The notes under the pieces: generated by a model | The model's database searches: none | Seen by the model: only the letters and a program-made list of their open reading frames with translations | Told to the model about the DNA's origin: nothing | Translations under genes and position numbers: made by a program | Assembly: GCA_951406725.2 (NCBI GenBank) | Contig: OX597814.1 | Coordinates: 43,958,001-44,022,000, forward strand | Direction of reading: 5' to 3' | Length of the DNA: 64,000 nt | From: Octopus vulgaris | Lineage: Eukaryota | Shown: positions 2,962-52,139 of the stretch, piece by piece | Layout: each line of letters opens with the position of its first letter | Numbering within the stretch: position 1 is the stretch's first letter

Positions 2962-3175
2962 AAGAAGAAGAAGAAGAAGAAGAAGAAGAAGATCGAAAAA
3001 TACCTTAGGAATACGGTTTGAAATTTCCCCAAGACACCTGATGAAGGCTGGGGGTATATCAGCCGAAACGTTGTGTCAACAACAAACAAGACGAGGACAA
3101 ATATCCGTCAAATGTAAATGATGTAAATAATGTAAATAATGTACATAATTCCTCATCTCTTAAACATAGAACTGT
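2809..3175 (+). mobile_element. tRNA-derived SINE-like element with internal (AAT)n(AAG)n tract and hammerhead ribozyme
   Basis: A box TGGCGTAGTGG 2816-2826, B box GAGTTCGATTCC 2859-2870, microsatellite 2884-2991, HHR 3033-3077, TGTAAATAA-type repeat tail 3111-3149. Confidence 0.8.
3033..3077 (+). ncRNA. Minimal type I hammerhead ribozyme
   Basis: Stem I gacac/gtgtc, core CTGATGA, stem II ggctg/cagcc, GAAA, palindromic AACGTT stem III, GUU cleavage triplet. Confidence 0.85.
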
Positions 3176-38994: not shown

Positions 38995-39233
38995 GCCAGT
39001 AAACATTGAAGTACGTCTATGTATTCTCTATGTATTCAATTGTATTGAATGAATACAAACACATGTATGAGCGATACAGATTAAAAAGTTGGTAACTGCA
39101 TAGACAAGGGTGTGAATATATGTAAGTATAAGTATATAGAGACAAATGAGCAACTGAGCAAATGAGCAAAAATATAAATGGGTATGCAGGCACAGTTTCC
39201 TTAAGACCGTTTCTGCCACGAGGCAATAAAATC
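38995..39233 (-). repeat. Left arm of a ~240-bp long-range inverted repeat (putative PLE pLTR)
   Basis: Diverged reverse complement of 45721-45957. Confidence 0.85.
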
Positions 39234-44160: not shown

Positions 44161-44858
44161 TACTACTTGTGTCAAAGTCATGCCTATTGTAACTGGTATT
44201 AATACTAACACTATTATTATCTACATTATTCATCATATTACCATTAATGTTTCAGGGGAAGTATTTAATTTTATCCTAATATCCTGCATTTTTAGTGCTA
44301 TATTATACCTATCCTTGTGTTTATCAAAAATCTCTTCATTTGAGGCAAGGTCTGAGATTCTTTTACATATATTTCATAAAAAGACTCCCTTTATTTGTTG
44401 AGGATGTTTAATAGAATTATTTTTATACCATACGTTAGAGCTTTCTTTCATATAAGGTTCATGGTGTCCGGTGTTTAAGTTGCAGTTTACGTCTAAATAG
44501 TTGTTTGAGTAGGTTTCGATAGGTCAAATCAATTGAAGAACTTCTGTAGACGTTTCTTTAATAATTCAAGTGGTTCATAACTATAAAGAGTGCGTCGTCC
44601 CAATATAGACTTCGCCTTAATTCTGGGAATTCCCTACTTATATTAGCAATAATAAATCTCTGAACGAGGTATAAACAGTAACTGCACGACAATGTGAGGT
44701 ATACTTGCCATCTCAATATGGCTAACCACTAAGGGTGGGTGTTACTGTAGCTTGTAGCCCCAGGGGAACAGCGTCTCCAGCTGGCTATCGACACATTTTC
44801 TGTGCCCTATCGGTATTTGCAAAAGGAGGTCATCCTTCCCTCGTCAACCTAAGTGATA

Positions 44859-44903
44859 CGCACGGACTGCAGTTTCTGGGTTTTGACTCGTCTTCAGTGT
44901 ACG
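44859..44903 (-). ncRNA. Type I hammerhead ribozyme (copy with two stem mismatches)
   Basis: cgtaca-CTGAAGA-cgagt-caaa-accca-GAAA-ctgca-GTC-cgtgcg. Confidence 0.7.
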
Positions 44904-45297
44904 ACAATCACCGGTTTTCGATGAAAGGAGTTCCTAATGCAAATATTATTATACTTTTTCAGTAACTCTATGTCACTGATCTCGAAAAATGTTATACAAG
45001 CAATAATAAGTCTATGAACGAGGTATAAACAGTAACTGAGCACAGAAAATATGTCGATAGCCAGCTGGAGACGATCTTCTCCTGGGGATACAAGCTACAG
45101 TAACACCCACCCTTAGTGGTTAGTCATTTTGAGATGGCAAGTATACCTCCACATTGTCGTGCAGTTACTGTTTATACCTCGTTCAGAGATTTATTATTGC
45201 TTGTATACACTTTTTCGAGATCAGTGACGTAGAGTTACTGGAAAAAGTATAATAATATTTGCATTGGGAACTCCTTTCATCGAAAACCGGTGATTGT

Positions 45298-45342
45298 CGT
45301 ACGCTGAAGACGGGTCAAAACCCAGAAACTGCAGTCCGTGCG
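45298..45342 (+). ncRNA. Type I hammerhead ribozyme
   Basis: Stem I cgtacg/cgtgcg, CTGAAGA, stem II gggt/accc, GAAA, palindromic ACTGCAGT stem III, GUC cleavage site after 45336. Confidence 0.85.
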
Positions 45343-45720
45343 TATCACTTAGGTTGACGAGGGAAGGATGACCTCCCTTTGCAAATACCGATAGGGCACA
45401 GAAAATGTGTCGATAGCCAGCTGGAGACGATGTTCTCCTGGGGCTACAAGCTACAGTAACACCCACCCTTAGTGGTTAGCCATATTGAGATGGCAAGTAT
45501 ACCTATATTGTCTGTGATCTATAATCCTACTAGCTCCGTCGCTTCCGCAGAGTCTGGTGAGCCCATTGTGATATCAAAGAGATCTAGGGTATCATTCCTT
45601 GCCCATAGTTTGTAATCAAATTCGATCACAGCTTTACGGAAGGTGTGTATAAAGTTTAACTCCCTCATTCTTACGTTAGAGTATTTCCGGGCGAAAATAA
45701 GAGCGCTATTTAGGACAATA

Positions 45721-45957
45721 GATTTTGTTGCCTCTTGGCAGAAACTGCCGTAAGGAACTAGAACCTGCACACACATTTATATTTTTGCTTATTTTCTCAG
45801 TTGCTCATTTCTTTCTTTATACTTATACTTATATGTATTCACACCTTTGCCTATGCAGTCACCAGCTTTTTCCACTCGCTAATCTGTATCCCACATACAT
45901 GCGTGTGTATTCATTCAATACAATTGAATAAATAGACATACTTGAATGTTTACTGGC
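45721..45957 (+). repeat. Right arm of the long-range inverted repeat (inverted pLTR at the PLE 5' truncation)
   Basis: Reverse complement of 38995-39233; directly abuts the truncated RT. Confidence 0.85.
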
Positions 45958-45990: not shown

Positions 45991-46230
45991 CAATCACCAC
46001 ATACAATATTTTTCACTGTAAGTACACAGCGTGTTGAAAACGAAGAAAGCAAGCTAACAGAAACTATTTTTTATCTTGTTTTCTGCTGATGAAGGAAAAT
46101 TCTTTATGGATTAGTCCAGAAAGCGGTCCGATTCGGTGATAACGAAATTTAAAAAATTTTCTGTTAGCTTTCTTTCCTCGTTTTCAACCCATTGTGTATA
46201 TATAGTGAAAAATATTGGATGTGGTGATTG
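45991..46230 (+). repeat. Inverted repeat (~73-bp arms) enclosing a degenerate HHR
   Basis: 45991-46063 vs 46158-46230; spacer contains CTGATGA(46086)..tcca-GAAA-gcg-GTC(46128). Confidence 0.75.
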
Positions 46231-48886: not shown

Positions 48887-49159
48887 ATATAATTGCCAAC
48901 TGAACGTGGCGGTCCCATAGAGGACGATGCTACTGCTACTGCTGGTTTTAGCCTCAGGACGACAGCTCTTCCAGCTCACTAATTACACACTGTCTGTGTT
49001 CCATTAGTACTAGAGTTGGGAGCGATAATTTCCCCTCACAAATACTAATCGGTCACAGACAGTGTGCGGTTAGCCAGCTGGAGGAGATGTTCTCCTGGGG
49101 CTAAAAGCAACAGTAGCATCGTCCTCTATGGAGACGCCACATCTAGTTGGCAATTATAT
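48887..49159. repeat. Imperfect fold-back (~120-bp arms) related to the retrozyme-like monomer
   Basis: 48887-49009 vs 49043-49159; tagccagctggag..atgttctcctggggcta..cagta is shared with 45414-45458. Confidence 0.8.
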
Positions 49160-49221
49160 TTTACGATTCCGTATTGCTACTGCTTAATTCTCGCTCAGAG
49201 GTTTAATATTTTGTGTGTATT

Positions 49222-51620: not shown

Positions 51621-52139
51621 ATATATGTATATACATATTCAAATATGAATTAGAGGGATATAAACACTATCGAACACAAAGGCACTAGACATGCATGTTG
51701 CTAGTTCATAGGAAGGCTGTGCTCATAGACGCAAGAGGGTATATTCTCATCAATTCGTCTGGTGTTAAAACGCATGAAGGTCATAGACAAGTGAGATAGC
51801 TCGCTCTAGGTCACATTCAGGAGGGATGGACATCGATATTTCGTCATTATTTTGACTTGTCAACATAACGACCGAGACCGAAGACCGATGAAAACTAAAT
51901 TGTTACATATAATTATTTTCAAATAACGCTAAAAGGTCCAAAGATCTCCAAATACATTGTGATTTAAAAAAAAAAAACTATTGAAATCAACACACTTAAC
52001 TAGTAGATATGTATAAACATTTACATACTAAAAAATATAAAAGACACACAACCACACACACATAGTTGTACGTACATACTTCTATTAATATACATACTCA
52101 CTAATATACACACACTCAATAACGATGGGATTTTGTTAC

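Follow-up and report, generated by a model that had tools for sequence, protein, structure and literature searches.

The stretch of DNA considered here, the window, comprises 64,000 nucleotides of the Octopus vulgaris genome (assembly GCA_951406725.2, contig OX597814.1, positions 43,958,001 to 44,022,000 of the forward strand), and its subject of interest is an inverted insertion of a non-coding 355-nt repeat with hammerhead ribozyme motifs, lodged within the decayed reverse transcriptase (RT) gene of a Penelope-like element (PLE). The repeat is very probably a retrozyme mobilised by PLEs, a reading carried by the fixed ends of its copies, their target duplications and the AT-rich DNA into which they are inserted.

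The inverted insertion and its hammerhead motifs

The insertion is 859 bp long (44645-45503) and is bordered on both sides by a 6-bp target duplication, TATATT. Within it two arms of the repeat point outward, with an inverted match of 264 nt at 98% identity and direct repeats at spacings of 354 and 356. Positions in the repeat are given below as u coordinates, in which u1 is window position 45150 and the unit length is 355; sites A and B are the two preferred 3' ends of genomic copies.

44639-44644, plus strand: left target-site duplication TATATT
44645-45038, minus strand: minus arm, 394 nt or 1.1 units, from u13 across the junction to u52, 3' end at site B
44851-44911, minus strand: second hammerhead, core 44891-44897, palindrome 44866-44873, with an extra stem II mismatch
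45040-45503, plus strand: plus arm, 464 nt or 1.3 units, from u247 across the junction to u354, 3' end at site A
45150-45504, plus strand: reference full unit, 355 nt, 44% G+C, longest methionine-initiated open reading frame (ORF) 30 amino acids
45290-45350, plus strand: type I hammerhead by motif and covariation, predicted cut after C45336
45304-45335, plus strand: parts of this hammerhead by motif, namely CUGAAGA 45304-45310, stem II 45311-45324, GAAA 45325-45328 and palindrome ACUGCAGU 45328-45335
45504-45509, plus strand: right target-site duplication TATATT, of which the first T and the next ATTGTC also match the unit (microhomology)

This arrangement bears out several properties ascribed to the repeat in a first-pass annotation of the DNA, in which it was described as a non-coding unit of about 355 nt that runs past its own junction and forms two runs pointing apart. 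Its description as multimeric holds for rare direct multimers elsewhere in the genome, whereas the window locus has inverted arms and not a direct dimer, with its two hammerheads, one per arm, inverted relative to each other. Folding of the monomer RNA gives a z-score of -5.2.

The annotated presence of one type I hammerhead per unit with a palindromic stem III also stands. Each arm carries a single motif of the form CUGAAGA, stem II, GAAA, ACUGCAGU and C, the minus-strand cut being predicted after G44865 as read on that strand. An Rfam hammerhead search gave no match on the whole window or on 45240-45400, and the ribozyme call therefore rests on the motif and on covariation. Across the genome searched (2.8 Gb in 227 contigs) the exact pattern has 102 matches and its reversed control none; this excess, like the folding z-score, speaks against chance. 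Among 14 representatives, drawn from 20 clusters with three chance matches and three truncated near-copies omitted, 9 of the 21 pairs show two-sided changes and 87% of cells pair; the covariation score is 0.354 compared with at most 0.15 for slid structures, and relatedness inflates the shuffle control. The stem III palindrome itself covaries, staying palindromic across subfamilies (ACUGCAGU, ACCCGGGU, ACUAUAGU, ACCGCGGU, ACUAGU, ACCGGU), and this comparison of sequences implies that the palindrome is under selection and that cleavage matters. Some subfamilies carry U3-A8 in place of C3-G8. When two copies are cofolded the double hammerhead is the minimum (-43.5 vs. 2 x -18.5 kcal/mol), and cleavage as a dimer via the palindromic stem III is predicted. 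Two points weigh against it: the window subfamily closes stem II with a C.A mismatch rather than the G10.1-C11.1 pair described as highly conserved (PMC4209133), the array subfamily having G-C at this position, and in vitro cleavage is reported for just one of nine Xenopus retrozyme dimers (10.64898/2026.07.22.740005). Elsewhere in the window, a minimal hammerhead-like motif of another family lies at 3034-3080 on the plus strand (CUGAUGA...GAAACGUU, palindrome ACGU), and a possible U3-A8 hammerhead-like motif with palindrome AUAU, which may be a chance occurrence, lies at about 51830-51867 on the minus strand.

The gene into which the block is inserted encodes a decayed Hydra-clade PLE RT, now in two parts.

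45510-45776, minus strand: upstream part of the interrupted RT, FDITMGSPDSAEATELVGL*ITD
44274-44638, minus strand: downstream part, SREFPELRRSLYWDDAL, then frameshifted LDVNCNLNTG...

Once one TATATT copy is discounted, the host frame runs on without a break (ELVGL*ITD / NI / SREFPELRRSLYWDDAL, reading SREFPEL). The RT is thus interrupted as first annotated, between ELVGL and LLANI, but the 'LLA' of LLANI is derived from the element. RTs at other places in the genome match the host fragment with 62-71% identity, and these paralogues have the Hydra-clade features of a DKT motif, a CxCX5C linker and GIY-YIG at the C terminus; a Pfam search of the two host fragments and one paralogue returned nothing useful. 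The unit sequence occurs in none of 19 paralogous RT loci, those with an intact motif run uninterrupted across the site, and no DNA similarity was found between the unit and this PLE family, so that the location inside a PLE RT is incidental. A second fragment of the Hydra-type RT region (39154-39233) is 82% identical to 45721-45800. In L104 (2580-2690) the terminal region of this Hydra-type PLE family contains a hammerhead-like motif of its own, whose stem II is about 85 nt long and whose palindrome is ACAGCUGU. A MITE-like inverted repeat with 93-nt arms at 83% identity lies at 45991-46230.

Genomic copies and their ends

A search with the unit returned 4,788 first-look candidates, 40 of them scored, a figure that is not a copy number. 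From the 102 exact-pattern loci 60 were examined with 3 kb on each side and 58 were parsed; 18 of these are inverted, arms exceeding one unit occur in 19, and arm length has a median of 0.82 unit. Direct multimers are rare, comprising one 10.3-mer (units 98% alike, 12-bp duplication at its flanks), one 2.8-mer and about 20 loci with two hammerheads.

It is at their 3' ends that the copies are most regular. Among 60 hammerhead-bearing arms 32 end at site A (u348-367, equivalent to about u5), 15 at site B (u395-423, which corresponds to u40-68 in the following unit, about u50) and 13 elsewhere, so that 47 of the 60 end at one of two sites separated by about 45 nt. Where both ends of an inverted copy could be classified, there is one A and one B end in 12 of 12 cases in a first set, which includes the window locus, and in 12 of 13 in a second; pooled, 24 of 25 are A+B and none is B+B (p = 3e-7 against free pairing), loci with an unclassifiable end having been left out (two in the first set, five in the second). 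Target duplications of at least 7 bp (7-20 bp) occur in 22 of 89 loci compared with 105 of 1,765 mismatched end pairs, a further 22 of the 89 have target duplications of low complexity, and (TA)4 touches a copy end in 42 of the 89. One PLE protein was shown to cleave AT-rich DNA on both strands and to extend them, initiating at two neighbouring internal sites, the interval between which forms the genomic tail (Frangieh 2024, PMC11167929), and PLEs are described with inverted 5' copies and a tail at one end only (Craig preprint, 10.1101/2021.04.23.441226). The claim that endpoints are freely permuted has accordingly been replaced: 3' ends are fixed at A or B, just the 5' ends vary, and each arm has one fixed end and one truncation. 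As the fixed ends follow the known PLE tail rule, the endpoints require no circle. PLE mobilisation of the retrozyme type, also proposed at first, is supported at the insertions themselves by the A/B ends, the target duplications and the AT-rich (TA)n targets.

What weighs against this reading is that a partner PLE with shared sequence was not found among the Hydra-type, Neptune-like and further PLE loci sampled. The unit has no DNA similarity to 12 Hydra-type, 30 GIY-YIG and 24 further PLE loci, which sample part of the PLE families of the genome, and the sampled Hydra-type, Neptune-like and further PLE families have other hammerheads or none visible. A very abundant Neptune-like PLE with 781-amino-acid frames (L153-L170) has a terminal hammerhead-like motif with a U3-A8 core and palindrome ACAUGU. 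Conceivably the unit is itself the terminal repeat (pLTR) of an undetected autonomous PLE and its copies are truncated ends of that element. Every insertion hallmark is of PLE type, Xenopus retrozymes are reported to be homologous to pLTRs (10.64898/2026.07.22.740005), and the partial sampling just noted leaves room for such an element. The interpretation is nonetheless very unlikely: a PLE ORF was joined to the unit in none of the 60 loci, four of which have unrelated PLE pieces at least 80 nt off, units join head to tail without an intervening ORF, and the sampled PLEs share no sequence with it. Constant attachment to a full PLE ORF, which the first-pass annotation had named as the sign of an ordinary pLTR, was thus not seen.

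The repeat has sister families that are 64-85% identical to it and have the same layout, and one is represented within the window.

48888-49219, strand unassigned: sister-family copy, older and inverted, with about 64-71% identity, the two-arm layout and the family palindrome ACCCGGGU

A search with this family gave 2,705 first-look candidates. A more distant family (L254, L270) begins ATCGTCAGCT, has a longer stem I and an TAATCAGTG core, is repeated in L254 and is also a target of long interspersed nuclear elements (LINEs). A 1.8-unit copy in L053 has directly 5' of it (287-1137, minus orientation) a tandem series in which u131-181 is repeated about 17 times in 50-nt steps, probably the product of slippage at microhomology. 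Contigs from four runs presumed to be RNA cover the unit unevenly and are uninformative on starts, strand, level and circles; a loose-end motif from them, which resembles the hammerhead of another subfamily, has no genomic match.

Putative promoter and start site, and guest LINEs

Upstream of the plus-arm hammerhead lies a putative promoter core and start site, and the minus arm has its counterpart.

45220-45226, plus strand: ATCAGTG, putative core of a proximal sequence element, 59 nt upstream of the presumed start
45279-45292, plus strand: ATCGAAAACCGGTG, presumed +1 to +14, the LINE insertion site and duplicated target in other copies
44974-44980, minus strand: putative promoter core in the minus arm, where the ATCG at 44922 follows 58 nt downstream

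In this genome the RNA polymerase II (Pol II) promoters of small nuclear RNA (snRNA) genes (L328-L347, L348-L387) have AATTAA near -90, ATCAGTG near -58 and a 3' box ending YAGAY, and sampled U6 loci are without AATTAA or ATCAGTG at those positions. A relaxed ATCAGTG core is found at -55 to -61 in U1 (15/15), U2 (17/20), U4 (6/6), U5 (8/8) and U12 (1/1) loci and in no U6 locus (0/8), and the AATTAA box near -90 in 46 of 50 snRNA loci. Of 200,000 shuffles 110 match, matrices of 7 and 8 nt rank the ATCAGTG site first in the unit, and three sister families have the core at -58 to -60. It is therefore likely, judging from these sequence matches, that the unit carries an snRNA-type Pol II promoter. 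The case is weakened by a 16-nt promoter matrix, which gives the ATCAGTG site 3.2 bits and does not rank it best in the unit, by the partial match to the AATTAA box (GATTTA/ATTTAA at that position), and by the fact that the core falls in a predicted RNA hairpin. The 5' arm of this hairpin is near-invariant and its 3' arm varies, which favours a constraint on sequence. No snRNA 3' box was found in the unit (best 1.2 bits vs. 5.7-16.3), and read-through would thus be allowed.

The presumed start is also the point at which other elements enter. In several retrozyme subfamilies the ATCG is an insertion site for two families of L1/Tx1-type LINEs (L250-L309, L313, L316, L325-L327), and some copies of the unit begin at u127-140 directly after LINE 3' ends. 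By BLAST the unit comes directly after the 3' end of family A in 24 of 30 loci, with ATCG-starting relatives in the other 6 on inspection; after that of family B comes the unit in 20 of 30, the U2 snRNA 5' end in 5, another LINE 5' end in 3 and other DNA in 2; each set contains its own query locus, and the U2 identity was confirmed. At U2 genes family B inserts at +1 with 14-bp duplications, and tandem LINE stacks occur. Full-length guests are about 5.5 kb long, and their duplications begin at ATCG, measuring 14 bp in U2 and in L325. The clade label comes from their architecture, with APE, RT and zf-RVT in relatives and a zinc-knuckle ORF1, and the best named relative of a LINE protein from this genome is one of the octopod Argonauta hians, at 64% identity. 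An extra 14-nt leader from ATCG is present in three U2-inserted LINEs and at one tandem junction, with one mismatch to +1 to +14 of a retrozyme subfamily, as expected if the LINE donor was transcribed from a retrozyme start. Tempering this is the shared target ATCG-N4-YYGG, by which endonuclease preference alone could explain the site. A third guest (L208, L209, L219), apparently consisting of a zinc-knuckle ORF1 only, has AATAAAGAGAAA as its end, at u140, and is accompanied in L219 by a 12-bp duplication. Tx1-clade LINEs that target other repeats or U2 are known (PMC4494074), and our literature search found no paper on a LINE that targets a retrozyme.

LINE 3' ends adjoin the unit in 44 of 60 loci by BLAST, and the window copy lies inside a PLE RT, so that the unit might be thought a passenger of the adjoining LINEs, comparable to a short interspersed nuclear element, or else a part of the interrupted Hydra-clade PLE. 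Either idea is highly improbable. The LINEs sit inside the unit, flanked by 12-20-bp duplications of unit sequence, and are for that reason its guests, which largely refutes the first; retrozyme copies, moreover, end at A or B in AT-rich DNA without LINE tails. Against the second stand the 19 paralogous RT loci that lack the unit and read through the site.

Template, proposed cycle and known systems

The first-pass annotation had taken permuted, greater-than-unit copies as the mark of reverse transcription of a circular RNA. The permutation argument fails with the fixed 3' ends, but a circle as a main template has a somewhat better than even chance on other grounds, because none of the copies listed starts at the cut, most overlaps and paired arms represent a single haplotype, and the palindrome appears to be under selection. 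Among the 100 copies listed (of 345) none begins at the cut; a single one, starting 2-4 nt above it, does so at an inversion junction. The first letter of the hammerhead pattern hides just a minority of copies starting at the cut. Subfamily-diagnostic differences number 36 in 4,904 bp of tandem overlaps and 29 in 3,841 bp between arms, compared with 1,709 in 60,470 bp of random pairs, a result that a homogeneous tandem master would give equally. Extension upstream of u123 is seen in 33 of 55 copies, and 27 retain the putative promoter core. A small cluster of 5' ends among the copies listed and in L427, L045, L047 and L029, at u167-176 on the 3' foot of stem II, probably marks an RT stop.

The same element might be copied by the same two-site priming from uncut linear read-through transcripts of rare tandem masters, with occasional template switching, circles being absent or a by-product. 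Such a cycle would account for the 22 of 55 5' ends at u123-155 (eight within 7 nt of +1), where linear primary transcripts would put them, compared with 4 at u90-122. It also draws on the anole PLE, for which cleavage is reported to be dispensable and uncut RNA the main substrate in vitro (PMC11167929), on the mosaic pattern in which units of the 10.3-mer share variants, on overlaps in L016, L021 and L221 that join two haplotypes, and on the C.A closing pair, which may weaken cleavage. These observations count against the circle, yet the linear alternative is itself rather unlikely. Among copies at risk the rate of ending is as high at u24-56 (9/21) as at u123-155 (22/55), and the step at +1 is therefore weak. 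LINE-free loci with several hammerheads start at u123-144 in just 5-6 of 21 cases, counted with subfamily-aware boundaries and with two LINE-interrupted loci and one unrelated repeat omitted. A purely linear cycle would lose one promoter each round. That the palindrome covaries implies a role for cleavage, yet none of the listed copies begins at the cut. Two arguments tried in this connection were abandoned: the pile-up of multi-hammerhead loci at +1, first seen in 6 of 11, was dropped with more loci, and the 10.3-mer was rejected as proof of rolling-circle copying, its mosaic units not being the simple product of one monomer circle.

The best explanation overall, to which we assign a probability of roughly 0.6, is a dispersed 355-nt hammerhead repeat with, in all likelihood, its own snRNA-type promoter, predicted self-cleavage as a dimer, and likely PLE copying from two fixed sites into AT-rich DNA, probably often from a circularised monomer. 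Pol II would start at the ATCG that lies 59 nt downstream of ATCAGTG and, in a unit without a 3' box, read on into the next one, and two hammerheads are predicted to pair via the 8-nt palindrome and cut. If the retrozymes of coral, mussel and axolotl are a guide, transcripts of loci with at least two hammerheads would yield a monomer that is then closed into a circle by ligation. The pairing of ends at the insertions suggests that a PLE endonuclease cuts both strands and that priming follows on one of them at site A (about u5) and on the other at B (about u50); the two cDNAs would break off at variable points and be fused head to head, which would produce outward arms and a target duplication. 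Only cDNAs running past +1 would rebuild a transcribable copy, and greater-than-unit copies would matter because the promoter lies upstream of the start. The LINEs inserted at ATCG may then borrow the retrozyme promoter.

A more speculative extension, which we put forward tentatively and consider doubtful as a whole, is a three-tier system of parasites, in which a superfamily of circular-RNA retrozymes mimics the promoter and 5' end of U-snRNA genes, a dimeric PLE protein primes two sites of one circle and thereby rebuilds an external promoter, and LINEs move between retrozyme and U2 starts to take that promoter. If it were true, the role of the hammerhead in the PLE cycle would be the formation of circles for promoter regeneration, a role open to direct test with a 355-nt RNA. 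An element of this small size lends itself to assays of cleavage, promoter and priming.

Comparison with known systems places the element among the metazoan retrozymes without long terminal repeats (non-LTR retrozymes). It shares with those described in PMC7229834 and 10.64898/2026.07.22.740005 a non-coding unit of 150-450 bp, a type I hammerhead, low G+C, the range from monomers to multimers, target duplications longer than 4 bp and coexistence with PLEs. It differs from them in that octopus copies are mostly dispersed, span 0.5-1.5 units, have two fixed 3' ends and show no similarity to sampled pLTRs, and in the C.A closing pair of the octopus subfamily; its circle is a likely one. The main text of Cervera and de la Pena (2020; PMC7229834) does not mention cephalopods or octopus, the sampling described by Li et al. 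(preprint 10.64898/2026.07.22.740005) covers vertebrates, three insects and one coral but no cephalopods, and hammerheads and retrozymes go unmentioned in the main text of a 2026 octopus repeat annotation (PMC13282606). No paper on a cephalopod retrozyme was found, although the family may still stand in Repbase or Dfam as unclassified. The suggestion of an undescribed cephalopod retrozyme family is consistent with this and with the hammerhead, unit size, G+C, multimers and target duplications.

Precedents for the remaining traits come from other systems. Poseidon, the PLE of Anolis (PMC11167929; 10.1101/2021.04.23.441226), has two adjacent internal RT start sites downstream of a hammerhead, and it and other PLEs have a 30-45-nt tail on one end, inverted 5' copies and AT-rich and (TA)n targets; unlike Poseidon, the octopus unit has no ORF, and its start sites lie about 173 and 218 nt past the cut. 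Earlier papers tie animal retrozymes to PLEs through co-occurrence and repeat homology, whereas here the insertions themselves bear the PLE two-start-site signature, with a near-strict one-A-one-B rule and without detectable pLTR homology. Newt satellite 2 (Coats 1994, as cited in PMC2220036) is likewise a tandem repeat with a hammerhead and an internal snRNA-type Pol II promoter, although it belongs to another phylum and has another sequence, and the octopus promoter is proposed from sequence. A promoter upstream of the start offers a concrete reason for greater-than-unit copies and suggests that the design of newt satellite 2 is widespread; no paper that brings 'retrozyme' and 'proximal sequence element' together was found in our search. 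Tx1L in Tx1D, Keno in U2 and Tx1-Mar (PMC4494074) are APE-RT LINEs found, like the octopus guests, at one site of a repeat or of U2, and that source proposes that target-specific Tx1-clade LINEs may rely on the transcription of their target. The octopus guest sites differ from known Tx1-clade targets in being the presumed +1 of the retrozyme and the +1 of U2, so that the LINEs would mark the start site and each be a parasite of a parasite. The element is best regarded as a new non-LTR retrozyme with unusually clear genomic traces of transcription, mobilisation and parasitism; each ingredient has a precedent, and the one-A-one-B rule, the promoter and the guests at +1 take it beyond a routine family record.
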